From Enterococcus phage VRE9_2, in the sequence record PP680568.1: 64,000 bases of DNA. One strand, written 5' to 3'. The notes under the pieces were generated by a model, which did not search any database, was not told the DNA's origin, and saw only the letters and a program-made list of their open reading frames with translations. The position numbers and the translations under genes are program-made. This document shows positions 5,339 through 63,945 of the stretch, piece by piece (position 1 is the first letter of the stretch; each line of letters begins with the position of its first letter).

Positions 5339-5365
5339 TTTAAAATAGGAAATTATTTCTATCAA

Positions 5366-5425
5366 AATATTGCAATCAAGGTTTACTTATTTTCATTTGA
5401 AAATGAGTAAACCAAGCAATATTTC
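5366..5425 (+). promoter_or_regulatory. Nested near-perfect palindrome (~60 bp) in the leader of gene 5448..6071
   Basis: Inner arms GGTTTACTTATTTTCA / TGAAAATGAGTAAACC (15 of 16 bp complementary, 2-nt centre). Outer arms AAATATTGC / GCAATATTT. Confidence 0.5.
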
Positions 5426-5447
5426 AAAAATAAGGAGGAAATAGAAA

Positions 5448-11382: not shown

Positions 11383-11479
11383 TTTTATTATCAAAACTTT
11401 ATAATACAAGCTTGGTTTTTTCTAGATGTATTAGGGAATATAATTCCAAGAACAACTCATATAAGAGGAGGAAAAACAA

Positions 11480-13546: not shown

Positions 13547-14905
13547 ATGGCCGATAATCTGCCAAAAATACCTTATACGTTACAAAACATACGAGACTTA
13601 AAATTTTATTCTGTATATAATTTACAACCTTTACAACCATACTCTTTAAGAGATTTCAGTTCCGGTGATACAAAGCATAGGATATATCAAAATTATATTA
13701 ATGCTTACGAAGCAGATTTTACTTCCAGGGCAGGAATGAATGCCGAAGAATTTTCTAAAAAAGCTGGTCTTCATAGTAAATTAGTTACAGAAAATACAGA
13801 TTTTATTAAAAATTTTAAAATAGCACAAAATAATTTCAGTATAAATAATACAGAGTTAAACAAATATGTTCAAGATTTATTATCTGGAGATTCTGATAGA
13901 TTACAAAGATTAGCTGGCAAAGAAAAAGAAATTATTAAAGTATTAGAAACTTGGGCTAACTCAGTTCAAGAATATCTTGATGTACTTTCAAGAGTAGATG
14001 ATTTATATTATTTTAGAAATATGGATCAAGCTCAGGTAAAAGGTTCTGTTTCTATGGCAAGTGGAAGAAATATTTCCCAAGCTTTTAGATTAGAACGAAG
14101 TGCTATGACAGCGATGCAAAATGCAGACGCCTTGATAGTAGGTTTAAAACAATCTATTGATAAAGTTAATCAAGAAGGATTATCTGTTAAACAATTATCA
14201 AATATGGTTATCACAACTCCTAGTTATGAAGGAGTTAGAGGACAGGCGCCATCAACAACAAAAACATTGGGAAATTTAAAGACAATGGTTGGTTCATTAA
14301 GTAATTTAATGGGGTTTGCCTTTGAAGCACAATTAGCAAGTGGCTTAGAGCGTCAGGTTAATGAAGCGCTATCAGACATTGCTCTCTTGGGAGGAGCAGA
14401 AGGAGTTTCAGTGACCTTAAGTGATGGACGACCTTTTAAGGTTAAACAAAGTAAAACAGACCTTAGAGCAACTGTTGAAGGAGTTGACTTAGGTTTTTCT
14501 TTAAAGAATTTATCTAAAAATGGTAAAACTAAACGAGTTTCATTAAATACTTCTAATACAAATCAGCTTATTGCTTTAATAAGTAATAATCAAGATTTTC
14601 GATCACAATTAGCTGGGACGTTAATGTGGCGTTCTGATTCTATAAAACGAACTAGTGACCAATTAACAATGTTTTTAGCATCCCTATCTGCAGATTATGC
14701 AATTGCAATGGGAGGGAATGATCGTATTGATTACATGGTTTTTAATGATAAAGTTATTAGCTTAGGAGAATATTATTCAATTATGGAGAAAAGACTATCT
14801 CTTAAAATTCATCCTAGCGCTAGTCAAGGTTCTTATCAAAATCAACTTAGAGAGTTGAGAGAGCGGGAAATATTAGCTAATATGCCTGTTAAATTTACAA
14901 CATAA
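13547..14905 (+). CDS. Hypothetical 453-aa protein between the tail chaperone and the tape measure
   Basis: Probable start is the ATG at 13547 (MADNLPK) after AAAAGGAGGG. The ORF tracker's longer ORF from 13442 lacks an RBS. Confidence 0.4.
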   Translation: MADNLPKIPYTLQNIRDLKFYSVYNLQPLQPYSLRDFSSGDTKHRIYQNYINAYEADFTSRAGMNAEEFSKKAGLHSKLVTENTDFIKNFKIAQNNFSINNTELNKYVQDLLSGDSDRLQRLAGKEKEIIKVLETWANSVQEYLDVLSRVDDLYYFRNMDQAQVKGSVSMASGRNISQAFRLERSAMTAMQNADALIVGLKQSIDKVNQEGLSVKQLSNMVITTPSYEGVRGQAPSTTKTLGNLKTMVGSLSNLMGFAFEAQLASGLERQVNEALSDIALLGGAEGVSVTLSDGRPFKVKQSKTDLRATVEGVDLGFSLKNLSKNGKTKRVSLNTSNTNQLIALISNNQDFRSQLAGTLMWRSDSIKRTSDQLTMFLASLSADYAIAMGGNDRIDYMVFNDKVISLGEYYSIMEKRLSLKIHPSASQGSYQNQLRELREREILANMPVKFTT

Positions 14906-14928
14906 GAGAGCAAAAGGAGAGGAATTAA

Positions 14929-17900
14929 ATGGCAAATAATGTAGACGTTGGTTTAAAGTTTAAAACTACCTACGAAGGTCTTGATGCTGGTAAACAAGAC
15001 CTAAAAGAGCTAAAAAATTTAATGGACTCCATTGGTAAAGATGGAGTTAAACTTAATTTAAAAGATGGAGAAATTGAACAAGCCAAATTACAAATTTCAG
15101 CGTTGGAGCGCTCAATTAGAGAAGCTGAACAAAGTGGTGGAGATTTTGGTAGAATTTTCCAGTCTAATTTAAATGCAGTACAAAATGAAGCTAAGCAAAC
15201 TGCAACTAGTGTTTCAAAGGTAGAGAAAGAAATTAAATCTTTAAATCAAACATCTAATAATGGTGGAGGATTTAAATCTATCTCTAATGCTGCTCGCTTA
15301 GCAACAAAAGAAATTCAAGGAACAACAGGTCAAATTGACCAGCTACGAGTGAATTTACAACAAGGTATGGGACAAACTATTGCTTTTGGTGCTATTGGGG
15401 CTGTGACAGGCGCAGTAACTGATGCTTTAAATGTAACAAAACAATTAGATGAAATTTCAACAGATATTAGTATCGTTTCTGGTAAAACTAGAAAAGAGAT
15501 GGAAGGATATCGTGATGCTGCTGTAGATGCTGCTGATGCTTTGGGAACTACAACAAAAGATTATTTGGATGCTTCTTTAATCTTTGAACAACAAGGTGGT
15601 CAAGCAGCTTATTATGCAAAAGAATTGGCAGAAGCTACTGTAACAGCCGCTAATATTTCTAACGTAGCAACAGATCAAATGTCTGAATATCTTACAGCTA
15701 CAATTAATGGTTTCCAACTATTAAAAGAAAAAGGTGGAGAAGCTGGTACTTATATTACTGATGTAATGGCTAAATTAGGAGCTGCATCTGGTTCTGACTT
15801 AGCGGAAATTGCTACAGGTTTAACACGTACTGCTAATACAGCAAAAGACGTTGGATTCCAATTTGAAGAAATAGCAACAATGATTGCTACTGTTTCTGAA
15901 GTAACTCGTCGCACACCAGAAACAATTGGTAATGCGTTTAAATCAATGCTTACTTCATTTACTCAATTGCGTGAAGCTGGTGAAGAGGAAGTAGAGGCTT
16001 TCACAAATAAAGTTCAAGAAGCCTTTAAACTTGGTGGAATTGAAGATATTTCTTTATTTGATAATGGGAATTTAAGAGATGCTGCAGATATCTTTAAAGA
16101 TATTGCTGCTCGCTGGCAAACAATGAATAAAGAACAACAATCTTTAGTTTCTGAAGCTGTTGCTGGTAAGTATCAAGCAGAAACATTCCGTGCATTTATG
16201 AACAACCAAGAGCGATACAATCAATTACTTGGGGAAGCTTATGATTCTGCTGGAACATCGGCGCAACAACAATTAGTATATATGGACTCTTTAAAAGCTA
16301 AAGGAGAACAACTTCAAAATGCTTGGCAAGGCGCTGTAAATACAGTTGTTGACTCAGATATGTTCAAGGGTGTTTTGGAAGATGCTACTAATTTCTTAAA
16401 AATTATTGGTGACGCAAAAAGTGGACTTGGTGGTTTAGCTACAGCAATTGCTCCTATTGTTGGTATTGGCGGACAAATGTTTGGCGCTAACCAAATTGGA
16501 GAATTATATTCTAATAATAGACTAAATAAACAAGCCAAAGAAATTACAGCAAGTTTAGAAAAATTAAAGGTTGCTCAAGAGGGTAATTTAACGGCTCTAC
16601 AAGAAGAGTATAAATCAGCAGCCCAAGTAAATCAAATTATGTCTACTCTTGGACCAGAAGCTGCTAAGAATTACGAAGAAGTAACTAAAGAGATTACTAA
16701 ACTTGATGAAAAATTAAAAGATATTCCTAAAAGTGCAGAAGAGGTAAAAGCTAAAACTGAAGAAGCTGCAAAATCCCTTACTTTAAATGGTTATTATAAA
16801 GGCGTAGATGAAAAAAATGTTACTAGAGCGGCTAAAGGTTTAGAAAATGAAAAAGACCCCCGTATTTTAAGTAATATTAATGAACTTAATAAAGCTAAGG
16901 AAGCCTTACAAAAAGCAGAACAGGTATCTCTTGACCAACTTTCTACTTTAGAAGGGAAAGTTACATTATTAGATAAAAGAGCATCAAGTTCAATTAAAAA
17001 ATTACAAGAAGAACTTGTTATTTGGGAAGATGATTATAGAGGAGCCCTTTATGAGAATAAAGCTTTGGCAGATAAATTCTCTGCGGATATTGACAAAGTT
17101 AGAGAAGGAATAGACCAACAATATGATAGCTATTCTGGATTATTGAAAGTTCGTAAAGAGGCTAAAGTAATCGAAGATCAAATTAGAGATAGTATGAAAT
17201 CACAAGAGTATGAAGCTCTTGATAATGTTTCTAAGGCTCAAAAAGAACTTGAAAATAAAGCTAAAAAAGTAGTATTAGAAGAACAATATACTAATGAAAT
17301 GAAAGAACAAAATAAAATTATTGCTGATAGAACGGTTTTAGAAAATAAAGCTCAAAGTACTGCTCAAATTGCAAAACGAACGGAATTAATTCAAAAAGGC
17401 GTTAGAGGAATGAGTTTAGCTTATAGCACAATAGTTCCTATTATAGCTACTTATAATTCTGTTCAAGAAAAAAGTATTAGTAAACAAGATGGTGTAATTG
17501 CAGGTTTACAAACTACTTCTGCAATGTTGATGGCATCTATGAATCCGTGGGGTATGGCTGCAGGAGCTGCTGCCGGAGCATTTTCATTAATAGTTGATAA
17601 ATTTGATTTATTCAAATCTCGTGGAGAAAAAGCAAAAGAAGTTAATGAACAATTAACTAAAACTTTTATGTCTCTTCAAGAAACAGTTAATGGAAATATT
17701 TCTAACCTAAATGATATTGCAGATACCTATAAACGTTTTGAGGGTGTTAATGCTGAAGCATTTATTAATAATGCCCCAGATCCAAGTGACACAGAAGCTT
17801 TTGAAAAGTATAATAAAAATCTAGAAGACTATGATAATTTAGCTGGTAAAATTGCTCAAACAAATCCAGAATTAGTCAAAGGTTATGATGATACTGGTAG

Positions 17901-32657: not shown

Positions 32658-32661
32658 AAAT

Positions 32662-32704
32662 AAATGGTCATTCCTAATTATTTGGGAGTGACCATTTCTT
32701 ATTT
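32662..32704 (+). terminator. Rho-independent terminator after the fibre gene
   Basis: Stem AATGGTCA/TGACCATT with a long loop, T-rich tail. Confidence 0.45.
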
Positions 32705-32739
32705 CCCAAGAGAGAAGAGGAAAAGGAGGAAATTTAATA

Positions 32740-45054: not shown

Positions 45055-45060
45055 TGAAGA

Positions 45061-45105
45061 ATCAAACTGGGGAACTTGTAATAGTACCCAGTTTGATTTT
45101 TTTAT
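45061..45105 (+). terminator. Rho-independent terminator
   Basis: 11-bp stem ATCAAACTGGG/CCCAGTTTGAT followed by T6. Confidence 0.65.
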
Positions 45106-45150
45106 ATAAAAAAGAGAAACTTACATACCAAGAGCAAAGGAGAGAAACTA

Positions 45151-48427: not shown

Positions 48428-48487
48428 ATTAAAACACCTCCCTACTAATAAGTAGCAAAGAGGTGAGACATGTTGTCTTTTTTTGTC

Positions 48488-50598: not shown

Positions 50599-50629
50599 TT
50601 TATCTCTCCTTGTTTTAACTTTATAATTA

Positions 50630-50658
50630 ATTATAACATATTATATATTATTTGTCAA
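50630..50658 (-). promoter_or_regulatory. Consensus SigA-type promoter for the kinase operon
   Basis: On the minus strand: TTGACA - 17 nt - TATAAT, ~30 nt upstream of the RBS AAGGAGAG. Confidence 0.6.
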
Positions 50659-50723
50659 TCTTTCGCCAAGATCCCAGTTTTAAGCGCTGAGACCTTTAAC
50701 GTAAGATAATTAACCTCGTCGGA

Positions 50724-53700
50724 TTAAGCTGCTCGTTCTGTTTTCAGAACAATACTTCCATCATCACGAGTTTCAGTAATTAATCCAATTTTTGGAGTTG
50801 CTGTATCATTATATGCTCTAGGAATAAATTGATCGTCACGTCTAAAACCAGTAATAAATAGTTTGTTTCCTCTTTCAAAGAAAGATTTTTCTACAACAGT
50901 TTTCTTTCCTGTTGATGTTCTTTCTGAAATTTGTTTATCCCAGTAAGAAAAATCTCCTTTGTACATTTTAACTAAAACAACAGTTCCTTCTGGAGTCAAA
51001 ACATCAATACTTGCTTTAACCTTATTTTTACCAATAATAGTTCCAACAATTCTATTCAATTTTAACTTAGAAAAACTTGCATAAGGATTAATTTTTTGTG
51101 CCTCTCTTGAAAGAAGCTCAAAATTATCAATTCCATATCTATCTACATCCACACAATTTAATTCGTGTTCTGTATAATAGAAGTTCATAGATTCCATTTC
51201 CCATCTTGCATATGAATCGTGACCACCATATGAATCAAATAATTCTAACATTTCATCAAAAAATATTTCTTCTAATAAAGACTCTTTATTTTCTCTTAAC
51301 CAATTTCTAACAGTATCCATTTTTTTATCATAAAACTTACTCCATCTATCTCGACTCATCACAGTCCAATAACGATCCTCATCACTAAACGTTTCAATAA
51401 ATTCATCCAAACCAATCGAAGATAAAAAGTTTTGCGCCCTATCATCGAGTCTAACAATTTGTCCGCTCTTGGTTAAAATTTCATTTATATAACGATTAAA
51501 CTCATAAATTCGTTTTTCTTCTTGTAACGATTCAGGGAATCTATTAATTTTCATAACTAATGGAACCTGTGTCATTGTGAGATTTTTTCTAAGTCCTGTC
51601 ATCATTTTAGCATATTTTGCTAAAGTAATTTTTCTATCAGAACTATCTATTTGTCTAAAAGCTCCTGCCTTAATTAATGTTAACATTTGCATTTTATTTG
51701 GATTTGTTTTTCTAACAAAATCTGCTAAAGAACTAAATGGTCTTCCTTCGAAGATTTTCTGAATAAATTCATAACCAATTCCAGTTAATGGTCTTAAACC
51801 GTAAGAAATAAAGTTACCTTCTACATTAGGAGAAAAGTTTGATTCTGATTTATTTATATCTACCATTTCTACTTTAATCCCATGTTTAATAGTATTTCCT
51901 AACGCTACCGCCATTTTAGAATAATCTGTTGAAGTTCCTGTTTCATCTCCTGAGTTGACAATCAAACAGCCACAGTTCCAATAAATAGATGGATAATGAT
52001 TAAATAAATTTAATTCTTGTAGTGCAATAATTGTATATCCAATTGTATGCAAAATTGAGAAACTATATCCCATTTGAACACTAACGGCTGAATCCCAAAT
52101 ATAATGAACAGTTTCATTTGAACATACTGCCTGTTCAAAAATCTTAGCTCTAAGCTCTGGAATTTTATCCATTAGTTTTTTACCAATAATTTTACGTGCT
52201 GCATTAGCTTCTGTTTCTGTAAAATTACAAATGTTTTCATCCATTAAAATCAACATTAATTCTTCCTGCGTATTTGGAACTCCATAAGAAGACAAGAAAT
52301 GTTTTTCTAAAATAGGAATTTCATCTGCTGGGATATTATATTTTTCTAATTCTTCATACCAAAGTTGAATATTTTCCTTAAATCTTGCATATTTTTCTAG
52401 CGGCATTTCACCATTTTCAGTTGCCATAAGTCTCATTAAAGAGTTCAATGCTGCTGCATCTTTTACATCTTCTGGTTTACCCTTCCTTACAGCTTCTTTT
52501 CCTACCGGTGTATCAAGCTGAAAAATATCCAAAACTTTGTTATCCCACGTTGGTTCCCACAATTCTTTACTATAATCTAATACATCAGGGTGTAATGTAT
52601 TAAAATACGTTTCTTTTAAAGAACCTTTCCATTCCATTCTATTATCTTTAATCAACAAATCCATTGTTTGACGAATTTTATCTAAAGCTTCGATGGACAA
52701 CATATCCATTTTTAATGCTCCCATATCATCGCTATCATGATAATCCCATTGAGTTACTTCTAAGTCGTTAGGAGTTTTCATCATAGCATTAATATCTGTA
52801 TAAGGATGATTAAAAATATAAACTCCTGAAGCATGAGAACCTCTACTTTTTACCATTCCTTCAATCGCTAAAGCTGTCTCTAAATAATTTTCATATTTAT
52901 TAATTTCATTAATAAATTCAGAAACTGGTTTACGACCTTTTTCTGGATTCCCATAAACCATATCTTTTAAATTCCAATCAAAACCACGTTCATTTGGAAT
53001 TAAACCACTTAAATAACTTGAAACATCATCGCTTATACCAAGTCCTCGTGCAGCAGTAGCTAATGCTGATTTTGCTTTTTCAGTTCCAAAAGTTGCAATA
53101 TTTAAAACTCTGTCATGTCCAAAAAAGTTTTTTAACGCCAATAAAATTTGTTCTCGCTTAGAACCTTGTGAATCTATATCAACATCAGGTAATTCTGGAC
53201 GACTTTCAGCTAAGTGTCTCCAGCTCATATCTCCTACATATGGAATAGGATCTACTTGTGTAACGTCCAACAACCAGTTTGACATAAATCCCATAGCTGA
53301 ACCACGAGATACTCCAACTAATGAATCTCCTTCGTCCCAAATTAATTCAATAATTTTTTGAGCTGTATTATAATAAGACGTCATAGGTTGTTTTAAACGT
53401 TCAGAAATTTTTACTAGTGTAGTAGCTTCAATTTCTAATTGTTCTAAATATCTTTCATTTAATACATTCCTAATTTCTAATTGGTTCAAACAAGTTCTGC
53501 TCCAATATAAATCTTGGTCTTCATCAGAATTTAGCAACATTGTTAAATATTTATATTTGCTTAAATCAATATTATTATATGTTTTGCTTAATTCTGGTAC
53601 ATTAACAGGAACATATGGAATTTCTTGCTCCTTAAACAAGGAATAATGTTTGATCCCACTTCTAATTTTTTCTAAGTTATCTAACATTTCCTGAAATTCT

Positions 53701-54578
53701 TCTTCTGAAAAATCTAATAAAAAATATTCCTTAACTTGTTCAGGTGGCATCATATAGGCAGTATAATAGAAATCATCAACTTCACGCTCTGCTTGCTTAC
53801 TATTCAAATAAGCTTTATGAATTTCTCTATCTGCTTCAGTAAGATAATGACTGTCTGTACTAAATACAACTGGAACATTCATTGCCTTTCCAAGTTTCCA
53901 AACTCTTCTATTTATATATCTTTGTTCTTCTGAAGTATTTGGAGCAATTTCTAAATAAAAATCTTCTTCACCAAAAACTTCTTGATTCCACAAAACAAAA
54001 TCAACAATTTTTTGTTTTTCTTCTAAGATTTTTTCTTGGTTAATTTTTTCTCCAAATGGAACTTCTTCTGCCGCTTTAATTTTCAAAAAAGCTTGAGCTT
54101 CAAAACTTCCAAGACAAGCTGTAGAAGATACAATATGTCCTTTTCCATTTTCCTGTTCCATAATTTCTTTTACTTGTTCACGAGTAATTGGAGTTCGTTG
54201 TAAGCCTCTATCCCAATAACTATTTTCCCAAGCTTTAGAAGACAACATTCTTAAAATTTTATGTCCTTTTTTGTCTTTTGCAATCAATAAATGATGATAA
54301 TATTTTTGTCCCATTTCTAAATCTTCGACTAAATAAATTTCATCTCCAAAACCAATTGTAAAAGATTCATGGTCTATACGACCTTCTTTTTCTAATTTAT
54401 CTCTATAATGCATTAATTGAGCGTGACCAGATAATCCTTCGTGGTCTGTTAAAACATAACCGCTTAAACCTAAATCTAAAGCATAATCAACTGATTGTTT
54501 AATATCATTAATTGAATCAGCGAATCCTAATAATGCATTACTAAAACTACTATGATTATGAATTGAATAGTATCCCAA
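50724..54578 (-). CDS. DNA polymerase III alpha subunit (DnaE/PolC-type, PHP domain)
   Basis: N-terminal PHP motif YSIHNHSSFS...LTDHEGLSGH. 1284 aa. Probable TTG start 9 nt after AAAGGAG. Confidence 0.85.
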   Translation of the reverse strand: MGYYSIHNHSSFSNALLGFADSINDIKQSVDYALDLGLSGYVLTDHEGLSGHAQLMHYRDKLEKEGRIDHESFTIGFGDEIYLVEDLEMGQKYYHHLLIAKDKKGHKILRMLSSKAWENSYWDRGLQRTPITREQVKEIMEQENGKGHIVSSTACLGSFEAQAFLKIKAAEEVPFGEKINQEKILEEKQKIVDFVLWNQEVFGEEDFYLEIAPNTSEEQRYINRRVWKLGKAMNVPVVFSTDSHYLTEADREIHKAYLNSKQAEREVDDFYYTAYMMPPEQVKEYFLLDFSEEEFQEMLDNLEKIRSGIKHYSLFKEQEIPYVPVNVPELSKTYNNIDLSKYKYLTMLLNSDEDQDLYWSRTCLNQLEIRNVLNERYLEQLEIEATTLVKISERLKQPMTSYYNTAQKIIELIWDEGDSLVGVSRGSAMGFMSNWLLDVTQVDPIPYVGDMSWRHLAESRPELPDVDIDSQGSKREQILLALKNFFGHDRVLNIATFGTEKAKSALATAARGLGISDDVSSYLSGLIPNERGFDWNLKDMVYGNPEKGRKPVSEFINEINKYENYLETALAIEGMVKSRGSHASGVYIFNHPYTDINAMMKTPNDLEVTQWDYHDSDDMGALKMDMLSIEALDKIRQTMDLLIKDNRMEWKGSLKETYFNTLHPDVLDYSKELWEPTWDNKVLDIFQLDTPVGKEAVRKGKPEDVKDAAALNSLMRLMATENGEMPLEKYARFKENIQLWYEELEKYNIPADEIPILEKHFLSSYGVPNTQEELMLILMDENICNFTETEANAARKIIGKKLMDKIPELRAKIFEQAVCSNETVHYIWDSAVSVQMGYSFSILHTIGYTIIALQELNLFNHYPSIYWNCGCLIVNSGDETGTSTDYSKMAVALGNTIKHGIKVEMVDINKSESNFSPNVEGNFISYGLRPLTGIGYEFIQKIFEGRPFSSLADFVRKTNPNKMQMLTLIKAGAFRQIDSSDRKITLAKYAKMMTGLRKNLTMTQVPLVMKINRFPESLQEEKRIYEFNRYINEILTKSGQIVRLDDRAQNFLSSIGLDEFIETFSDEDRYWTVMSRDRWSKFYDKKMDTVRNWLRENKESLLEEIFFDEMLELFDSYGGHDSYARWEMESMNFYYTEHELNCVDVDRYGIDNFELLSREAQKINPYASFSKLKLNRIVGTIIGKNKVKASIDVLTPEGTVVLVKMYKGDFSYWDKQISERTSTGKKTVVEKSFFERGNKLFITGFRRDDQFIPRAYNDTATPKIGLITETRDDGSIVLKTERAA

Positions 54579-54613
54579 TAAATATAACTCCTTTCATAAT
54601 TCCTTATATATTA

Positions 54614-54660
54614 ATTATATCATTTAAAATATAAAAAGTCAAGTAAAATAATTACTTGAC
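54614..54660 (-). promoter_or_regulatory. Composite terminator-promoter cassette (copy 1) upstream of the polymerase gene
   Basis: Minus strand: GTCAAGTAATTATTTTACTTGAC hairpin directly after the TK stop. Its CTTGACT arm supplies the -35 TTGACT, then a 17-nt T-rich spacer, then TATAAT. Confidence 0.65.
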
Positions 54661-55239
54661 CAATTCATTATAATTAAAATAACATTTTCTACATACAGGA
54701 ATATATTCGTTGTCTCCAATTAAAATTTGTTCACCCCTATAAATAGCTTCTCCATTAATTGTACGTAAATTCATAGTTGCTTTTTTATCGCATAATGTAC
54801 ATACAGTTTTTAACTCTTCTAATTTATCTGCAAATTCTAACAATGCTTGAGAACCTTCAAATAAATTATTTTGAAAATCATTTTTTAAACCCCAACAGAG
54901 AACAGGAATATTTCCCTCATCTACTACTCCTGCTAAGGTAATTACCTGTTCTCTTGATAAAAACTGGGATTCATCCACTAGGATAGCATGGACTTTTTCT
55001 TTTTTAGCTTTTTCTAAAATTTCTTCTCTGCTATCATTTAAGTATTCTGCCTCAATATTAAAGCCAGTTCTAGAAACGATCTTTTTAAAACCGCTTCTAG
55101 TATCTAAATCAGAAGTATAAATTAATACATTTTTGCCTTGTTGAGCATAATTATAAGCAGTTGTAATTAAAGATAAACTTTTTCCTGAGTTCATAACTCC
55201 ATATTTAAAATATAATTTTGCCATTTTCATTTCTCCCAA
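54652..55239 (-). CDS. tdk: Thymidine kinase
   Basis: P-loop GVMNSGKS, DESQF, C-terminal CxxC...CxxC zinc ribbon (CTLCDKKA ... CRKCY). 195 aa. Confidence 0.85.
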   Translation of the reverse strand: MGEMKMAKLYFKYGVMNSGKSLSLITTAYNYAQQGKNVLIYTSDLDTRSGFKKIVSRTGFNIEAEYLNDSREEILEKAKKEKVHAILVDESQFLSREQVITLAGVVDEGNIPVLCWGLKNDFQNNLFEGSQALLEFADKLEELKTVCTLCDKKATMNLRTINGEAIYRGEQILIGDNEYIPVCRKCYFNYNELVK

Positions 55240-56408
55240 ATTCCACTATTTTTATCATAAGCTAATACTAATTTTTCCGAAGCTCTAGTAACCATTGTAT
55301 ATAACCATTTTCTATGATTTTTTCCATTTAATCGTTCCTCGATTCCTAAAACCTTAGAGTATTCACTACCTTGAGATTTATGTGTAGTAATACAATATCC
55401 ATAATCAATATAATTAACTCTAGCATCACCTTTTGCAAATTGATTTACAATATAAGATTTTTGGTTTTCTTTAATAAAAGGAAGCATATCATACTTGATA
55501 GAAAACTCTCCACCACCAAATTCTGGAACAAAACGAACTCGAGCGATTTCAATATCTTTTCCCATTGCATTCCCCATTAATTTTTCACTTTTAAATACAC
55601 CACTAGAAAAATTAACTTCGCCTAACATGCCATTAATAAGAGGAAATCCTTCTTCATTTAAAATATCCCAATTATTATTAGTTACAATAATTTTATCTCC
55701 TTCTTGAGGGGTAGGTGAAACAAAACCCTTAGCTAAACGAATTTCATCGTTGTAAAGTTTTCTTGTTACATTTCTTCCACACAAAACTTGGTCTGCCCAC
55801 AAAAGCATACCTACAGAAACTTCTTCTTTTGGAACCATTTTAACAAAATCATCAGAAAAAGGTTTTATAATTTCCCCTTCACGAATCATTTTAGATAATT
55901 GAATAATACTATTCCCTTCCTCTTGGCGCATGATTTCATCTAAGAAAATATGGGGATTTTTTAACATACCATTATCTGCTCCTACAGGAGGTAGCTGCCC
56001 TGGGTCTCCAAGCATTATAATATGAATACCTAAATCTGCTATATCTTTTAATAGGTCTTCTGGAACCATTGAAATTTCATCTATTAAAATTAATTTAATC
56101 CCCTGATAATTTTCAACAGGAAGCTTTTGATGAATAAAATTATTATTAATTTTGATAGACTTGTATCGCAATTTGTGTAAAGTTTGAGCTGCTGGGAATC
56201 CTGTTTGTTGAAGACGATAAGCTGCCTTACCTGTAAAAGCTCCAACCATATATTGTAATGGTGATAGCTCTAGTGCATTAATAATTTTTTTTGCTAAAAA
56301 AGTTTTACCTGTTCCAGCAAAACCAGCGATTGTAGTATAACGTTCTCCACTTTTATATCGTTCTACAGCAATTTCTAAACCTTGTTTTTGTTTACTTGTT
56401 AATGACAT
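55227..56408 (-). CDS. Dda/RecD-like SF1 DNA helicase
   Basis: Walker A AGFAGTGKTF, Walker B LILIDEISMV, C-terminal TTHKSQGSEY motif. 393 aa. Confidence 0.75.
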   Translation of the reverse strand: MSLTSKQKQGLEIAVERYKSGERYTTIAGFAGTGKTFLAKKIINALELSPLQYMVGAFTGKAAYRLQQTGFPAAQTLHKLRYKSIKINNNFIHQKLPVENYQGIKLILIDEISMVPEDLLKDIADLGIHIIMLGDPGQLPPVGADNGMLKNPHIFLDEIMRQEEGNSIIQLSKMIREGEIIKPFSDDFVKMVPKEEVSVGMLLWADQVLCGRNVTRKLYNDEIRLAKGFVSPTPQEGDKIIVTNNNWDILNEEGFPLINGMLGEVNFSSGVFKSEKLMGNAMGKDIEIARVRFVPEFGGGEFSIKYDMLPFIKENQKSYIVNQFAKGDARVNYIDYGYCITTHKSQGSEYSKVLGIEERLNGKNHRKWLYTMVTRASEKLVLAYDKNSGIWEK

Positions 56409-56440
56409 TTAATCATTCCTTTTTTATTCATTATATTTAT

Positions 56441-56488
56441 ATTATATCATTATAAAAATAAAAAGTCAAGCTATTTACTTGACTTTTT
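56441..56488 (-). promoter_or_regulatory. Composite terminator-promoter cassette (copy 2) upstream of the helicase gene
   Basis: Minus strand: AAAAAGTCAAGTAAATAGCTTGACTTTTT hairpin, then -35 TTGACT, 17-nt spacer, TATAAT, RBS AAAAAGGAATGA. Confidence 0.65.
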
Positions 56489-56599
56489 ATTTTGTTTAAT
56501 TTTAATTTGTTCCCAAGCAATTAAAGCATTTTTCATTTGACCTGGGTTACGAGCTAAATATTCTGAAACAAATTCTTTTTTAGTTATTTTACGTTTCAT
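56471..56599 (-). CDS. Small basic 42-aa ORF (MKRKITKKEFVSEYLARNPGQMKNALIAWEQIKIKQNKKSSK)
   Basis: AAGGAG 8 nt upstream of the ATG. Its stop lies in the loop of the cassette hairpin. Not in the ORF track because it is under 60 aa. Confidence 0.3.
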   Translation of the reverse strand: MKRKITKKEFVSEYLARNPGQMKNALIAWEQIKIKQNKKSSK

Positions 56600-56662
56600 A
56601 TCTATCACTCCTTAAATTTGTATGTATAGGGGGGGTGGGTTTTAGGAAAAGAAAAATAGGTA

Positions 56663-56701
56663 GAAGGTAAATATGGTTCAATTCAAAAAATAGCATGAAC
56701 C
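56663..56701. repeat. 12-bp perfect inverted repeat AAATATGGTTCA ... TGAACCATATTT (15-nt loop) in a long intergenic region
   Basis: Read directly from the sequence. Lies 50 bp downstream of the DHH gene stop, adjacent to a G7/C7 homopolymer at 56631-56637. Confidence 0.5.
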
Positions 56702-56749
56702 ATATTTTTCTCCTAGATTAGCGTCCGTAGACGATAAAATTCTTTAATA

Positions 56750-58489
56750 TTAGAAAATGTATTTTTGTGCAGATTTCAATTCTAAATCTGCAACAAACAT
56801 TTGTAGGAACGTGCGACCTCTAAAAGTACTCATTTTAATAGTTCCAACTACATCAATTTTTGATTGCTGATTTTTCATGAGTTTTTGTGCTGTTTCAGTA
56901 CTAACGCCCTTAAACTTAATAAATTCCAGTCCCCCAGCAGAGAATGTTATCTTGTGGTTATCAAATTCTCCACCTACAACTATATCATCTTTTTTAACAG
57001 GGACGTCTCTTAAAACAAAGGTAGGCTCTTCTAAACCTTTTCCCCAGAATGTAGCATAACGAGTAATTTCTGTTAAATTTTCTTTAGACATTTGTTGCCA
57101 AGAAATATCAAAATCTACAGAATATATTGGCTCAAAGACAATCTCTGATAATTGTTTATTAAAATATTCTATAATTTCATTCTTTTTATCAGCAGCAAAA
57201 GCAAATCCGTGAGCTCCTTCATGACCTTCTGCGAATTCAAATAATCCACTTTCTTGCTCAAACCGTTTTAATTCTGGTAAATCAGACTTATCATCTCCAC
57301 GAGCCGACCCACCAAAAAAAGTTTTTCCATCTTTTTCAAAATACGTCCCTACTAAAGTTGGCTTTTTATATTTTGAAACAAATTGATTAGCAATTAGTCC
57401 TGTAAAGGTTTTTGGAAATTCATTTTTTGTATCTAAAATTAGAATCTGGTTGTCAGTTAATTTATTTTCTTCAATTTGAGTTTCTAATGAATTAAAGGCA
57501 TTATCTCTCAATCTATCTTGCCGAGCTTTAATATTATTCATTTTCCTAACAACTGCTTCATGGAATACTTCTGTATCTCCCTCTTTAGCTCCACGTTTTG
57601 TTGAAGGTACATCATAAGGTTTATCACTAACCATAGCTTTAGTAACTTCTTTTTTCTCATCCATCGTTCCTACTCGTGTTACTGCATTAATCATTGGGAC
57701 AATAGAAAAAGATAAACCAATCGGTGTTACTTGTCCTCCAAGATTAAATGACTTAGCCTTATATAGTGCTTTTAAAAAAGTATTGTGAATATTTCTCATT
57801 CCTTGTTGAACAATATAAATTGTTTCTAAAGTATTAATTTCAATCATATCTCCTACAATCCCAATAGCAGCAAGATCATAGTATTTTTCTGAGTGGTCGA
57901 AGCCATACATTTTATCATACAACGCAGCAAACTTTAAACAAACTCCTGCACCTGATAATTTCTTATTAGGGTAATCATCTAAAGAAATATTTACCATTGT
58001 AGCATATTCTGAAAATTTAGGAGCGTCATGGTGATCCAAAATTACAATAGGTATATTCAATTTTTCTACAATATACTTATGAACATCATATTCATTCGAA
58101 GAACAGTCAGGAGCTATAATTAAATCTACATTATGTTCCCCCATAATATCTTCCACTGTTTTTACAGGAATTCCATGTTCTTTGTTCTCTTGGAAAACAA
58201 TTATTATTCTATTTGTTATTTCTTCTTTATAACAATCTTTTAAATAATTATAAACAATAGCTGTAGAAGTATAACCATCTGCGTCAGGGTCTTGAATTAA
58301 TAATATTTTACCTTTTGAATTTACAATTTTGTTGTGAATAATTTCAGCAACCTCTTTCAAATTTTTTATTAAAAGAGGATCGTGTAACGCTGAATCATTT
58401 AATCTAAAAATTTTATCTGGGTTTATCCCTCTATTTATGAAAATGTTAATAATGTTGTCATCATTTTTTCCAATTAGTTGCGTTCTCAA
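56750..58489 (-). CDS. DHH-family phosphoesterase (RecJ-like ssDNA exonuclease)
   Basis: DHH motifs LIQDPDADGYTS and VILDHHD. 579 aa. Lies in the replication arm. Confidence 0.65.
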   Translation of the reverse strand: MRTQLIGKNDDNIINIFINRGINPDKIFRLNDSALHDPLLIKNLKEVAEIIHNKIVNSKGKILLIQDPDADGYTSTAIVYNYLKDCYKEEITNRIIIVFQENKEHGIPVKTVEDIMGEHNVDLIIAPDCSSNEYDVHKYIVEKLNIPIVILDHHDAPKFSEYATMVNISLDDYPNKKLSGAGVCLKFAALYDKMYGFDHSEKYYDLAAIGIVGDMIEINTLETIYIVQQGMRNIHNTFLKALYKAKSFNLGGQVTPIGLSFSIVPMINAVTRVGTMDEKKEVTKAMVSDKPYDVPSTKRGAKEGDTEVFHEAVVRKMNNIKARQDRLRDNAFNSLETQIEENKLTDNQILILDTKNEFPKTFTGLIANQFVSKYKKPTLVGTYFEKDGKTFFGGSARGDDKSDLPELKRFEQESGLFEFAEGHEGAHGFAFAADKKNEIIEYFNKQLSEIVFEPIYSVDFDISWQQMSKENLTEITRYATFWGKGLEEPTFVLRDVPVKKDDIVVGGEFDNHKITFSAGGLEFIKFKGVSTETAQKLMKNQQSKIDVVGTIKMSTFRGRTFLQMFVADLELKSAQKYIF

Positions 58490-59643
58490 TATATATCATA
58501 CTCCTCTTCATCTGTTCCTATGGAATCCCATAGCTCTAATTTTTCTACAAAATTTTCATCTATCTCTTTGTATGTTTTTCGTTCTCCATATAATTCTGCA
58601 AAAACTTCAAAACCACAATCTACTGGAGAATCCTTATATCCCGAAATCATATTAGTATCTAAAATAAAACTTATTTTAATACCATCTTCATTCGTTCCAA
58701 ATCGCTCTTGTATTGTTTTAAAAATTCCTACTAAGTTATCATATTCTCTATCATACTTCATAGATTGAAATTGTCTATCAAAAGCAAAAATAATTTCTTC
58801 TACACCTAATTTTTTTAATGCTTCATACTGATGCCGTGAAAAGTGCATACCAAATGCTGCTACACCAATATTTTTTTTCGGAGATAATAAATCATCCATT
58901 TTCATAACCGATTTTTCTCCTTCAAAAACAATGGCTTTTCTTTCTCTTCTAATATTATTAGCATTAAAAAATAAACCGAATAAATAAAATGATAGTGGCG
59001 AAGAATATAGTATTCCTTCACGTTCAACAGGTCTATATTTTCCATATCGCTCTATCATTTCTTTATTAGCTATTCTTTGTCGTATACCTAATAAATTTCC
59101 TTCTTCGTCTAAATGAGGAAACATTAAACCAGTTGTCGCATAATTATATCTGATATTATATTTATGTTGAGTTTCTGCTGATATACCTTCTCGTTCCCAA
59201 TCATTTACAATAATTCTAGGATAACGTAAATAAGGTTTTTTGTCATAAAACATAAAACTTGGCTCTTGATATTCAATATCTAAATCATCATTATGCAACA
59301 TATCATTGTCGCCTAAAGTCATAAACTCTTGTGATTGAATATAAATATCAATAGCCTCTTCTAATAAAAGTTCTTCGTGATATTCATTCATATACATTTT
59401 AGACAATAATTCAAAAATATCAAATCTACCACAACCAGTGTAACAATTAAATAATTTTGTATTATCATAATAATAAAGTTTATGACTACCCTCACCTTTA
59501 TGATTATGACAGACAGTCTCAAAGACTAATTGGTGTTCGTCAACCCAGTTACCTTGAATACCTTGTCCTACTAAAAAATCATATACTTGTTGAATAGACA
59601 TTCCAGCTTTTATAGCATTCTTATCACGTCCATATTCTGCCAT
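58486..59643 (-). CDS. DnaG-like DNA primase (zinc-finger + TOPRIM)
   Basis: CHC2-type zinc finger CHNHKGEGSHKLYYYDNTKLFNCYTGCG near the N-terminus, with acidic TOPRIM-like residues downstream. Overlaps the DHH gene by 4 nt. Confidence 0.65.
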   Translation of the reverse strand: MAEYGRDKNAIKAGMSIQQVYDFLVGQGIQGNWVDEHQLVFETVCHNHKGEGSHKLYYYDNTKLFNCYTGCGRFDIFELLSKMYMNEYHEELLLEEAIDIYIQSQEFMTLGDNDMLHNDDLDIEYQEPSFMFYDKKPYLRYPRIIVNDWEREGISAETQHKYNIRYNYATTGLMFPHLDEEGNLLGIRQRIANKEMIERYGKYRPVEREGILYSSPLSFYLFGLFFNANNIRRERKAIVFEGEKSVMKMDDLLSPKKNIGVAAFGMHFSRHQYEALKKLGVEEIIFAFDRQFQSMKYDREYDNLVGIFKTIQERFGTNEDGIKISFILDTNMISGYKDSPVDCGFEVFAELYGERKTYKEIDENFVEKLELWDSIGTDEEEYDIY

Positions 59644-59685
59644 ATATCTATAACCTACTTTTTTAATTATTTTTTATACATTTAT

Positions 59686-59728
59686 ATTATATCACAATAA
59701 AAATAAAAAGTCAAGCAATTAGCCTGAC
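59686..59728 (-). promoter_or_regulatory. Composite terminator-promoter cassette (copy 3) between the DnaB-like and primase genes
   Basis: Minus strand: GTCAGGCTAATTGCTTGAC hairpin immediately after the DnaB stop, then TTGACT - 17 nt - TATAAT. Confidence 0.65.
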
Positions 59729-59729
59729 T

Positions 59730-61325
59730 TTAAAAAGCACTTTTTCGATCATCTACTGTTTGATTACGACGCTTAACATTTTTTTCTGCTGCTTTTTGAA
59801 CTTTAATAGATGTAGCATCAATTCCAATAGGGATATTATTACTATCTGTAATAAATAAACCCTTACATCTACAAGTTCCCAAATCTACATCACACCACAA
59901 TTTAACACCAGCATATTTACCTCGTCGTACCTTATAAAAGCTAATAATATAATTTGGACGAAAATATCCTTGACTTACAAACGTTTCTACAGCTTGTTCA
60001 TCAATAGGTCTAATTTTAACTGCAATCATTCCTACATCAATACGATCCGCAATAGCTTTAGACCCACGAAGCAGATTTTGATTAAGTTCCCCCTCAAGAT
60101 AATCTCCATTTACCTGAGTTCCTGACTCAATAAAAATTCCTAGTTGATTTGCTAAATCTTTTAATTTAGTTGACAACATAAATAATACCTGGTCTTCACG
60201 TAATTTCATACCATTTGAAATAGAAGCAATTTCTGCTAAAAATTTCATAGATGTATGAATATAATCAAAACGGAAATATTTAACATCATGTTCTCGATAA
60301 TATTTTCTGATAGTAGCTTCAATTTCTGTAACGGAAAAATCTGAAATAATTTCAAAATACAACGGAGCTTCAGACATAATTCTAGCTCCTTCTCTTAATA
60401 CTTTTTCTTGGTCTTCATCAAATTTACCATCTAAAATGATATCTTCAGGAATTCCTGTAAGAAATGCTAATGCCATTGTTTGACATTCTTCTGAATCTAA
60501 CTCTGTAGAAATAAATAAAGAACCTTCTGCTTCTCCGTTGTCAACCCAAGCTTGTTTATGTTGGTCATAAATTACAGGAAAGGCAGAATAACAAGCTCGA
60601 GACATCATAATACGAGATTTCCCATTTCCTGTTGGAGCTGAGTACAAATAAAATTTACCTAACCGATCTCCACGAGTTATCGTATCCATCATTGCAATTG
60701 GGGAAGGAGAACCAAAATCTGGAGCTTCTTTAAAAGAATCAATTAAATTTAATAGACCTTCGCCAGCCTGAATGCTTTCAGAAGCTACATTACTTGCAGA
60801 AGTATCCATAATGTGTTGAATATTATCAGAAATTTCATTTGCCATATCCTTTAAAGAAGTATGTTCAAACCAATTTTGTTGATAAGCAATTAATTCTTGA
60901 TTCTCTGTGTCCCAATCATAAAATTGTTTTACAGACACTCCATTTTTCTCAAGAGAGCGAAGTAGAGTTAATTTTTTAATTGTGTCTAGGGCTGGTTCAA
61001 AAGCTGTTGGATCTCCTACTTGTGATAGTTTGTCAAAAAAATATTCTCCTTGTCTAGCATACTTTCCTTCAGCAATTTCTATCTCTTCGTCAAATAAAGT
61101 ATTAATTTGAGGACGACCCTGAATATAACTTTCTATGACGCCCAAACTAAATTTTGGATGCCCCATTGAATAGAGATTATACATAATAGCATAAGAAACT
61201 TTTTGTAACCCATCAACAAAATCAGCTTCATTTACTGCAGCCATCTTAGGATGGTCAAATAATGTTGGTTGTACATATAAAGCTCCTAATAACATATTAG
61301 CAATATCTTTGCGATAATACTTCAT
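59730..61325 (-). CDS. DnaB-like replicative helicase (SF4)
   Basis: Walker A YSAPTGNGKS. 531 aa. Adjacent to the primase gene. Confidence 0.65.
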   Translation of the reverse strand: MKYYRKDIANMLLGALYVQPTLFDHPKMAAVNEADFVDGLQKVSYAIMYNLYSMGHPKFSLGVIESYIQGRPQINTLFDEEIEIAEGKYARQGEYFFDKLSQVGDPTAFEPALDTIKKLTLLRSLEKNGVSVKQFYDWDTENQELIAYQQNWFEHTSLKDMANEISDNIQHIMDTSASNVASESIQAGEGLLNLIDSFKEAPDFGSPSPIAMMDTITRGDRLGKFYLYSAPTGNGKSRIMMSRACYSAFPVIYDQHKQAWVDNGEAEGSLFISTELDSEECQTMALAFLTGIPEDIILDGKFDEDQEKVLREGARIMSEAPLYFEIISDFSVTEIEATIRKYYREHDVKYFRFDYIHTSMKFLAEIASISNGMKLREDQVLFMLSTKLKDLANQLGIFIESGTQVNGDYLEGELNQNLLRGSKAIADRIDVGMIAVKIRPIDEQAVETFVSQGYFRPNYIISFYKVRRGKYAGVKLWCDVDLGTCRCKGLFITDSNNIPIGIDATSIKVQKAAEKNVKRRNQTVDDRKSAF

Positions 61326-62005: not shown

Positions 62006-62030
62006 TATATGTATCCTCCTTAAAAAAGAA

Positions 62031-62066
62031 AAGCGAGGAAGTTATTTCCTCCTCGCTCATCAAATT
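62031..62066 (-). terminator. Rho-independent terminator (minus strand) after the ATPase gene
   Basis: Minus strand: GAGCGAGGAGGAAATAACTTCCTCGCT hairpin followed by TTTTCTTTTTT, then RBS AAGGAGGA. Confidence 0.55.
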
Positions 62067-62070
62067 AATC

Positions 62071-63078
62071 TTATTGTTGTGAAGCAGCCAAATCTTTTAA
62101 GTTTGTAATTGCTAGATCTACTAGTTCAGCTTGTTCAGGTGTAGCATCTGCTACTTTATTATCATGACCTAAAGCTTCATTTACAATTGTACGAATACGA
62201 GGACCATAGAAATCAGCATTAGCTTCCATCAATTCTCCAGCAAGATTATTGAATGTTTCAATTAATTCTTCGATAGGAGTATCAATTTTATTGTATTTAT
62301 GAACCGTAGAAGAATTATCTGTTACAGAATCAATTCCAAATTGTTGCTCTAAATGAGAAACTGCATCACTAATTGCTCCTACTAAATTATCATAATTAAA
62401 TACAATGTAATCAGGAGTGCTATCAAAACGAGAACCAGCAACAAAACGAGGTGTTCCTCGCATGTATAGACGAGTTTCTAAACCTTCTTCTGTATTAACT
62501 GCTCGTGAATAACCAATGATATCAGCCATACGAGTAATAATTTTATTCCCACGTTTATCTAATGTTGGAATAATTTGATTATATTCTTCACCAGATTCAT
62601 CCTTAAAGACTTTATCTTGAGAATGAGAAATCATAACTAATCCATAATCTTCAGCCATGATAGAACGTAATTGTTCATCAAATTCTTTTTCTACTAATTG
62701 ATATCCTTTACCATAAGGTAATTTCTTTTGGTCTGCAATATCTGATGCACCGTGTTGATTAACAATAAATTTTTCACATAGTCCATATGCAATATCTACA
62801 GTATCAATAATAATATTATCATACATTTCTTTAGCTTGATCTGTTTTTAATTGCCGCAAAACTTTTTTAAATTCAGACCAGCTATTAATTGGCAAGGCTC
62901 TTACACCAGGAATTGCAGAATAACCTTTTTCAAAAGCCAATAGCAAAGACTTAGGGAATCGTGTTGCTGTGGTAGTTTTACCTGATTTAGGTTCTCCGTA
63001 AAACATTACTGCATATCCTTTTAAATCTTTAGAAACTTTATGAGGCTCAACATTAAAAATATCAATTGTATTTGCCAT
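62071..63078 (-). CDS. Sak4-like RecA-fold ATPase (AAA_24 family) with C-terminal extension
   Basis: Walker A MFYGEPKSGKTT. Hydrophobic Walker B IIIDTVD. 335 aa. Confidence 0.6.
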   Translation of the reverse strand: MANTIDIFNVEPHKVSKDLKGYAVMFYGEPKSGKTTTATRFPKSLLLAFEKGYSAIPGVRALPINSWSEFKKVLRQLKTDQAKEMYDNIIIDTVDIAYGLCEKFIVNQHGASDIADQKKLPYGKGYQLVEKEFDEQLRSIMAEDYGLVMISHSQDKVFKDESGEEYNQIIPTLDKRGNKIITRMADIIGYSRAVNTEEGLETRLYMRGTPRFVAGSRFDSTPDYIVFNYDNLVGAISDAVSHLEQQFGIDSVTDNSSTVHKYNKIDTPIEELIETFNNLAGELMEANADFYGPRIRTIVNEALGHDNKVADATPEQAELVDLAITNLKDLAASQQ

Positions 63079-63171: not shown

Positions 63172-63945
63172 TTAGAATTCAAAAGTTTTTGCTTTATCAA
63201 CTTTTGGCGCTGTATCTTTTTTAGATGTATCAGCCGCAAATCCACTTTTACGTTGTTGATTATCCAAAGCTGCAATTGAAACTTCATAAGCTTTACGTCC
63301 ATCTTGAATTGTTTTAAATAATTCATCTGTAATTTCTTTTGGTTCAATAGCCGCACCAGTAATTACATTTTCTCGTTTTGTACTTTCAAAGATTTCAATA
63401 CGAGTATCACCAAACGCTGATTCTGTTTCACGTTCTTCATGAATTAGATTATTAATCACTTTACCCCATACTTCAATTAAAACTGGGTTTGTTTGACTTG
63501 CGTCAAGCTGAACGAAATAATCATAAGCAGCTTCAGTTTCAATAATAAATTTAGCTGGGAAACAAACGTCACGATAATCAAAAATATTTGCATTCAATAC
63601 ATATCGTCCAGTAGGCTCATCTTTATAAACTTCTTCTACAGGTTGAGCTGTTAACAACAAGTCTGTTGTAAATTCTGCTCGAGGAACACCTGTGTTTCGA
63701 TCATTTAAGAAGCTTGCTCGAATTTGAGTTGCTTCAATTAAATCACCAGCTTGATTTTTAAAAGCACTTGAACTAATAGAAGTTGTCGTCATATAATTTT
63801 TTCCAATAAATGCTTCTGGATTTTGTAACCAATTGCTGATAGTTGCGAACTGTTGGTTTGTAGAACCATCTTTATTCAATTCACGATAAAAACCTTGAAG
63901 ATTTACAGATTGATCTCCAGTATTTAAAGTTAATGATCCAACCAT
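63172..63945 (-). CDS. Hypothetical recombination/ssDNA-associated protein (257 aa)
   Basis: Immediately upstream of the Sak4-like ATPase. The acidic C-terminal peptide ...KVDKAKTFEF ends in an aromatic residue, as SSB-like partner proteins do. The start may lie further upstream. Confidence 0.3.
   Translation of the reverse strand: MVGSLTLNTGDQSVNLQGFYRELNKDGSTNQQFATISNWLQNPEAFIGKNYMTTTSISSSAFKNQAGDLIEATQIRASFLNDRNTGVPRAEFTTDLLLTAQPVEEVYKDEPTGRYVLNANIFDYRDVCFPAKFIIETEAAYDYFVQLDASQTNPVLIEVWGKVINNLIHEERETESAFGDTRIEIFESTKRENVITGAAIEPKEITDELFKTIQDGRKAYEVSIAALDNQQRKSGFAADTSKKDTAPKVDKAKTFEF

Follow-up and report, generated by a model that had tools for sequence, protein, structure and literature searches.

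Three hairpin-promoter cassettes in the replication module of an Enterococcus phage are probable promoter-coupled terminators

Can a unit of about 45 bp end the transcript of one phage gene and start that of the next? The question is raised by the replication module of Enterococcus phage VRE9_2, from which we analyzed a stretch of 64,000 nucleotides (PP680568.1; hereafter the window). An earlier note on this DNA described four sites on the minus strand: three copies of a cassette (c1, c2, and c3) in which a terminator-like hairpin overlaps a consensus promoter, and a fourth promoter (P4) on its own. All four are present. Our analysis indicates that c1-c3 are probably composite promoter-coupled terminators, similar to the PeSL cassettes of T4-like phages, that are used by the host sigma-A RNA polymerase. 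The window belongs to an Enterococcus siphophage and is ~96% identical to phages VRE9_4, VRE9_3, H1, EF1, and EF5 (134-142 kb).

The three cassettes, all on the minus strand, share one layout. As the note proposed, the 3′ arm of the hairpin, CTTGAC, contains the -35 element TTGACT of a promoter with a 17-nt spacer and an extended -10, TGATATAAT (TGnTATAAT). The spacer starts with a T-run, TTTTAT(A/T)TTT, such that in RNA each stem is directly followed by the tail U5AU(A/U)U4. In c1 (54614-54661), the hairpin GGTCAAGTAA-TTATT-TTACTTGACT spans 54637-54661 and the promoter 54614-54642, with the -35 at 54642-54637, the spacer TTTTATATTTTAAATGA, and a TG-preceded -10 TATAAT at 54619-54614. The predicted transcription start site, ~54607, lies upstream of a DnaE/PolIII-alpha-type DNA polymerase gene (TTG 54578). 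In c2 (56441-56493), the hairpin occupies 56455-56493; its core, GTCAAGT-AAATA-GCTTGAC at 56465-56483, is flanked by AAAATAAAAA and TTTTTATTTT, and pairing between the A-tract and U-tract lengthens the stem to 17 bp. This pairing makes c2 look terminator-like on both strands. The c2 promoter (56441-56469) has its -35 at 56469-56464 and its -10 at 56446-56441, with a predicted start at ~56434 that serves a Dda/RecD-like helicase gene (ATG 56408) and a thymidine kinase gene. In c3 (59686-59731), the hairpin AAAGTCAGGC-TAATT-GCTTGACTTT (59707-59731) is in full 10 bp long, with one G.U pair, and the promoter (59686-59714) consists of a -35 at 59714-59709, the T-rich spacer TTTTATTTTTATTGTGA, and a TG-preceded -10 at 59691-59686. 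The predicted start, ~59679, is followed by a gene for a hypothetical protein of 385 amino acids (ATG 59643), a RecJ-like gene, and a small open reading frame (ORF), orf42. P4 (50630-50658; TTGACA-17-TGTTATAAT) precedes the guanylate kinase gene (ATG 50598) and subsequent genes and has no hairpin-plus-T-tract terminator.

Two details of the earlier description were only partly borne out. An arm separation of 5-7 nt is correct for the extended stems, all of which enclose 5-nt loops (stems of 9-10 bp in c1, a 7-bp core in c2, and 7 bp, or 10 bp in full, in c3), but the core arms lie 11, 7, and 7 nt apart in c1, c2, and c3. Likewise, although all three hairpins overlap or follow stop codons, a gene stop immediately before the hairpin is found only at c3, and even there the hairpin starts within the TAA stop (59730-59732) of a DnaB-like helicase gene. 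In c1, the thymidine kinase stop TAA (54652-54654) is inside the 5′ side of the stem (GTC AAG TAA), while in c2 an ORF reads through the 5′ arm. This is orf42, which encodes 42 amino acids from ATG 56599 (within the listed ORF 56471-56608), has a good Shine-Dalgarno sequence, and ends at TAG 56471-56473, with its C-terminus encoded by the c2 5′ arm. At each of the four promoters, a Shine-Dalgarno sequence and start codon follow ~25-40 nt 3′ of the promoter. Since this arrangement means that the hairpin is present only in RNA coming from upstream, the hairpin belongs to the 3′ end of the preceding unit and is not a leader of the downstream gene.

Two further features accompany these promoters. 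Downstream of each -10 is a second conserved element, TATAAT-N5-7-TATA(A/G)A(A)G, that runs into the Shine-Dalgarno sequence (50610-50630, 54595-54614, 56425-56441, and 59670-59686, minus strand) and is also found at all VRE9_4 promoters; such an element points to very short leaders and to constraint on the start region. Upstream of P4, a region at ~50665-50712 (minus) is structured (-20.4 kcal/mol, z -3.2) and lacks a U-tract. In VRE9_4 and an IMG/VR contig (L008), its 3′ arm is TTGACG, creating a second, tandem TTGACG-18-TATAAT promoter, whereas the window has TTGGCG at this position.

The occurrence of these elements is not random. TTGACT-N16-18-TATAAT was observed three times against an expectation of 0.17, and none of 100 shuffled sequences reached three. 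Similarly, GTCARG-N3-13-CTTGAC matched at c1-c3 only, with 0.07 matches expected. When we scanned 46-64 kb for consensus promoters, the total number of promoter-like sites was at background (93 vs 96). The only sites matching at 11 or 12 of the 12 hexamer positions were c1-c3 (11/12 each) and P4 (12/12), and all four carry TG before the -10. With their 17-bp spacers, these four have the sequence characteristics of sigma-A extended -10 promoters. A terminator scan independently picked up all three hairpins, and the folded RNAs were stable, at -13.5 kcal/mol for c1 (z -5.6), -17.9 for c2 (z -7.6), and -13.1 for c3 (z -3.2). Each cassette thus has what is expected of an intrinsic terminator in sequence: on the coding strand, where a gene ends, a stable hairpin runs directly into a U-rich tract. 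A permissive-threshold Rfam search of 46-64 kb gave no match at the cassettes. Its sole match was a sub-threshold L20_leader at 62019-62162 (minus; 28 bits vs a gathering score of 58.7, E = 0.06), which overlaps a stand-alone terminator at 62031-62058 and is probably spurious, likely reflecting just that terminator.

We compared the cassettes with those of relatives. In all seven, c1-c3 and P4 are kept. Of the few differences, two change the stems. The window has GTCAGGC where relatives have GTCAAGC in the c3 arm, and GCTTGAC where relatives have ACTTGAC in the c2 3′ arm. Both replace a Watson-Crick pair with G.U on the sense RNA, and both would give C.A mismatches on the opposite strand. The remaining differences among relatives fall in loops or synonymous codons. 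Two IMG/VR contigs are ~96% identical in DNA over this region and encode PolIII proteins 99-100% identical to that of the window. In the IMG/VR contig 3300045988_171352 (L029, ~9700-9774, minus), the c3 spacer has a 6-nt deletion (TTGACT-11 nt-TATAAT) and the hairpin, T-run, and TGATATAAT are kept; the deletion either leaves a promoter that relies on the extended -10 alone or reflects slippage of the assembly in the TTTTTA repeat.

Since all cassette-bearing relatives are at least 95% identical, we used a pattern search to find independent instances in which covariation could be examined. An exact scan of IMG/VR for GTCARG-N5-11-CTTGACTTTTTAT recovered 39 stretches, while 5′ arms of the same composition that are not complementary recovered 11 (GAACTG) and 6 (AGTCGA). 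GAACTG is the cleaner control, because AGTCGA matches in part genuine hairpins containing G.U pairs, including its two matches with TATAAT. An exact TATAAT at 16-18 nt, most often with TG, was present in 9 of the 28 distinct non-relative instances with a complementary arm and in 0 of the 10 controls that truly cannot pair. A seventh stem pair, just inside the fixed 6-bp arms, was formed in 23 of the 28 instances by A-T, T-A, G-C, C-G, or G.U. In these instances, the inner stem pair covaries across independent phages. We examined eight of the TATAAT-bearing instances. All lay between tandem ORFs, with the upstream ORF ending within ~20 nt of the 5′ arm (8/8), and in seven of the eight a Shine-Dalgarno sequence and an ORF followed 3′ of the -10. 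The recurrence, covariation, and tandem-ORF context together suggest that using the 3′ arm as the -35 is a recurrent solution in low-GC phages, many of which appear to carry it (at least nine unrelated IMG/VR contigs).

To view the cassettes in a whole genome, we put together the complete VRE9_4 genome from four pieces. It holds exactly three copies of the strict cassette, which lie at the junctions known from the window and point in the direction of the genes. The genome has ~25 consensus sigma-A promoters, none of them in the 50-kb structural block. Scoring hairpins of -10 kcal/mol or stronger within -28 to +24 of the -35, we found one over the -35 in 13 of 27 sigma-A-type promoters (binomial p = 8e-8), compared with 8.5% of random genomic 52-mers and 9.6% of TTGAC sites without a -10. 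Across the genome, the register varies: the -35 forms the 3′ arm in three cases and lies at the apex or in the 5′ arm in at least 11; in two a terminator abuts the -35, and in one the arms flank the -10. The stem sequences are unrelated, with nothing in common beyond TTGAC. In the VRE9_4 early region (116-127 kb, equivalent to L003:16000-27000, minus), almost all of the small early genes are preceded by consensus promoters of their own. For at least 11 of these genes, the -35 TTGAC is part of a G/C-rich hairpin, placed at its apex or in its 5′ arm; all of the stems differ, and a U-tract follows only some of them. Examples are GTAAAGGGTT-GACA-AACCCTTTAC, ATAAGCC-TTGACG-GGCTTAT-T7, and AAAAGGG-TTGACT-CCCTTTT.

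Two described systems combine these elements. Promoter-coupled terminators were reported in A. baumannii, E. coli, and B. subtilis and predicted in S. aureus, S. pneumoniae, and others (Fletcher, Forrest, ... Grainger, Aug 2026; bioRxiv 10.64898/2026.08.19.745784). In these, termination sites lie no more than 35 bp from the next start, with a mode of ~10 bp, and the -35 falls in the DNA of the stem-loop; the promoter is strengthened by the T-tract that precedes the -10 and, through proximity, itself enhances termination. The coupled hairpins are weaker on average than stand-alone ones, and the palindrome is occasionally a transcription-factor site (LexA) (bioRxiv 10.64898/2026.08.19.745784). 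In c1-c3, too, a predicted terminator and the promoter of the next tandem gene share DNA between functionally related genes, the -35 is part of the stem-loop DNA, the T-tract falls within the spacer, before the -10, and the hairpins are weaker than stand-alone ones. Unlike c1-c3, the published examples are on bacterial chromosomes rather than in a phage, and their ends were mapped experimentally, whereas ours are predicted.

The second system is the PeSLs, composite sigma-70 promoter/stem-loop cassettes of T4-like myoviruses that form five positional subclasses, including overlap with the -35 (PMC2839356, PMC4122927). Their promoter and terminator function was demonstrated in lacZ assays, and recombination between PeSLs shuffles genes (Arbiol et al., 2010; Comeau et al., 2014; PMC2839356, PMC4122927). 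All reported PeSLs are from T4-like phages with Gram-negative hosts, where they cluster in hyperplastic ORFan regions (PMC2839356, PMC4122927). As in PeSLs, near-consensus sigma-70-type promoters and predicted stem-loop terminators or attenuators lie between small tandem genes, many per genome, and in VRE9_4 the combination is repeated in variable register. The setting differs: the host is Gram-positive, the phage is a ~135-kb siphovirus, and c1-c3 lie in a conserved replication module without shuffling. Thus, at the level of sequence, c1-c3 have the features of both PeSLs and promoter-coupled terminators, and their architecture is one that has already been described. Lambdoid morons are also autonomous units with a promoter and terminator inside a larger co-oriented gene block, but there the two are separate elements flanking a gene and do not form an overlapping 45-bp unit or a repeated family. 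A Kayvirus RNA-seq paper reports a promoter directly after a terminator; overlapping elements are not mentioned in those of its passages that matched a term search.

The resemblance to PeSLs extends to recombination in the early region of the relatives, outside the window. This region is mosaic, with relatives covering 47-87% of the VRE9_4 query in 7-12 aligned pieces, and the breakpoints coincide with promoter cassettes, where homology overlaps. VRE9_3 tracks one VRE9_4 cassette as far as the common AAAAGGGTTGAC (or AGGGTTGAC) and then continues in the downstream half of the next cassette, with loss of the gene between. Thus, as in PeSL shuffling, insertions and deletions are flanked by cassettes, with the crossover inside, deleting or swapping the flanked genes. 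Single-gene deletions of this kind are seen at VRE9_4 119440-119900 and 120160-120700 relative to VRE9_3 (L014:4945-5440), with the crossover exactly in the common (AAA)AGGGTTGAC of two neighboring promoter-hairpin cassettes. At c1-c3, there was no shuffling among the seven relatives.

The model that we favor, and consider likely, is that each unit acts on the transcript above it and on the gene below it. In RNA from the upstream gene, GTCA(A/G)G...CTTGAC would fold into a hairpin followed by U5AU(A/U)U4, and part or most of upstream transcription would stop ~7-9 nt beyond the stem, within the following promoter's spacer. As a duplex, this DNA would supply the -35 TTGACT (the 3′ arm), the T-rich 17-bp spacer, and the extended -10, and a new mRNA with a short leader would start ~7 nt after TATAAT. 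The predicted termination site then falls ~19-24 bp before the predicted start, with tandem genes on either side. Polymerase bound at the coupled promoter probably makes termination more efficient as well, as it does in the published examples. The gene order, all on the minus strand, is DnaB-like helicase, c3, 385-amino-acid protein, RecJ-like exonuclease, orf42, c2, Dda/RecD-like helicase, thymidine kinase, c1, DnaE-type polymerase, P4, and guanylate kinase and onward. The cassettes would thereby cut the replication module into insulated units (...DnaB; hyp385-RecJ-orf42; Dda helicase-thymidine kinase; PolIII; guanylate kinase...) whose transcript levels are set by their own strong promoters. 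The note had transcript levels reset gene by gene. A strong promoter for each unit is part of what we propose, but the units bounded by cassettes contain one to three genes and not single genes. Its central proposal, that one ~45-bp unit is both terminator and promoter, gained in silico support from the motif statistics, folds, G.U changes, covariation, and precedent, and this dual function agrees with every available test.

Several observations weigh against this model. The cassette hairpins (-13 to -18 kcal/mol) are weaker than stand-alone terminators of the same module (-19 to -20 kcal/mol), which are represented on the minus strand by the GC-richer hairpin at 62031-62058 (-19.8 kcal/mol; no coupled promoter) and by one at 48435-48465 (-18.8 kcal/mol), just upstream of a Holliday-junction-resolvase gene; termination may thus be partial. 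The cassette stems are AT-rich, with three or four G-C pairs, and the U-tract is interrupted. As the 5′ arm is coding in c1 and c2, ribosomes could hinder folding. The predicted distance of ~20 bp between end and start is inside the 35-bp window of the preprint but off its ~10-bp mode, because here only the 3′ arm is the -35. Since TTGACTTTTT, the T-run after TTGACT, is also present in three hairpin-less promoters, a T-tract alone is no evidence for termination; it is a feature of the promoter class, put to a second use as U-tract in the three cassettes. Conservation of the cassettes is weak evidence because the relatives are ~96% identical, and the next relatives of the PolIII protein (34-38% amino acid identity; IMG/VR L010-L013, Enterocloster phage CB457P2, and Staphylococcus SEP9) lacked such promoters in the fetched flanks. 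A literature search by accession or name found no transcriptomic or promoter study of these phages.

In a more elaborate scheme, the overlap would be a timing device and not just economical. By analogy with the published coupling, weak hairpins would terminate efficiently only while the host sigma-A holoenzyme holds the promoter, through roadblock or collision, and would become leaky once the phage, whose relatives encode a sigma factor of their own, redirects or depletes sigma-A polymerase, such that the module changes from short insulated units to long read-through transcripts. In a related scheme, the terminating polymerase would be handed off to the overlapping promoter. We regard these schemes as unlikely.

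Could the units instead be promoters only, with the upstream arm and the similarity between copies arising as by-products of cassette duplication, gene conversion, or PeSL-type recombination, and with little or no termination? This would explain why c2 and c3 agree at ~40 of 43 positions from CTTGAC to ATAAAT, beyond what a promoter needs, and it fits both the weakness of the hairpins as terminators and the crossovers inside such cassettes in the early region of relatives. However, the 5′ arms lie in three unrelated coding or intergenic contexts and thus were not simply co-duplicated with the promoter, and the loops and stem extensions differ while pairing is kept. Moreover, hairpins are statistically tied to promoters throughout the VRE9_4 genome, and in other phages complementary arms are enriched over control arms. 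Promoter-only units therefore seem improbable to us.

Alternatively, the hairpins may act mainly after transcription, as 3′-end stabilizers or RNase processing sites of polycistronic read-through mRNA rather than as release sites. In the early region, a good U-tract is missing after many of the hairpins over the -35, which shows that hairpins are retained even at sites that look poor for canonical termination. In the window, however, all three hairpins are directly followed by U5AU(A/U)U4, the canonical tail of an intrinsic terminator, and equivalent elements terminate in vitro with pure polymerase (bioRxiv 10.64898/2026.08.19.745784). We consider a mainly post-transcriptional role quite unlikely.

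The note also raised the possibility that the palindrome over the -35 serves a phage or host regulator as operator. On this view, GTCAAG-N-CTTGAC would bind a dimeric repressor of the three promoters, and the RNA hairpin would be incidental. Repressors classically bind where this inverted repeat lies, over the -35; among the genes of the relatives are a small "transcriptional repressor" and a sigma factor; and LexA has been shown to use a terminator palindrome as its site (bioRxiv 10.64898/2026.08.19.745784). Yet an operator has half-sites of fixed sequence and spacing, and c1-c3 have neither: the spacing is 11 nt in one copy and 7 nt in the others, and in the window one half-site has an A-to-G change and the other a change beside it, both tolerated and both preserving RNA pairing only. 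A dozen other VRE9_4 promoters have hairpins with unrelated arms, the stem covaries in unrelated phages, and the 3′ half-site is fully accounted for by the -35. Because the spacing varies and there is no common arm sequence, we rejected the operator, which we judge very unlikely. A hairpin promoter of the coliphage N4 type was ruled out, as N4 early promoters resemble the cassettes only in the appearance of a hairpin at a phage promoter and are extruded DNA hairpins, without -35 or -10, that are read by the virion RNA polymerase, whereas the cassettes have textbook sigma-A hexamers and an extended -10.

Read in the favored way, as promoter-coupled terminators, c1-c3 give a clean map of predicted transcription units in the replication module of ~135-kb Enterococcus phages, a group that has been little studied. 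This reading also extends both PeSL shuffling cassettes and promoter-coupled terminators to a Gram-positive siphovirus, a mild extension of range that does not overturn current understanding; the architecture will not surprise a specialist. In practical terms, the 45-bp units could serve as compact insulator-plus-promoter parts for phage engineering and aid annotation, and the cassettes mark likely recombination points.

Some of the genes between the cassettes are interrupted in relatives. In EF1 (L006:4724-10402 and 14308-16429) and two IMG/VR contigs (L008 and L009), the polymerase gene and the 385-amino-acid gene are split by ~1-kb insertions, one of which is annotated as an HNH homing endonuclease/phage intron. 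Both genes are uninterrupted in the window.

Elsewhere in the window, the structural (late) block on the plus strand (1-48000) contains no sigma-A consensus promoters, and its terminators are of the classical stand-alone, GC-rich type (gaps 1362-1466, 5339-5447, 11383-11479, 32658-32739, and 45055-45150). Several upstream regions in this block contain (T/C)CCAAGA(G/A) 15-30 nt before the Shine-Dalgarno sequence (13 vs 5.9 expected window-wide), which may be a late-promoter element for a phage sigma factor encoded outside the window. At 63493-63521 (plus), a -35-like palindrome, TTGACTTGCGTCAAG-N-AATAAT, lies on the non-coding strand inside an ORF of 257 amino acids and is probably a chance match. 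Lastly, the gap between the RecJ-like gene and orf42 (56602-56750, minus) contains a 12-bp hairpin, AAAUAUGGUUCA...UGAACCAUAUUU, nested in a more extensive structure (z -3.5). A stretch rich in pyrimidines, with CCCACCCCCCC in it, comes next, and the element may attenuate or terminate transcription of the RecJ-like gene.

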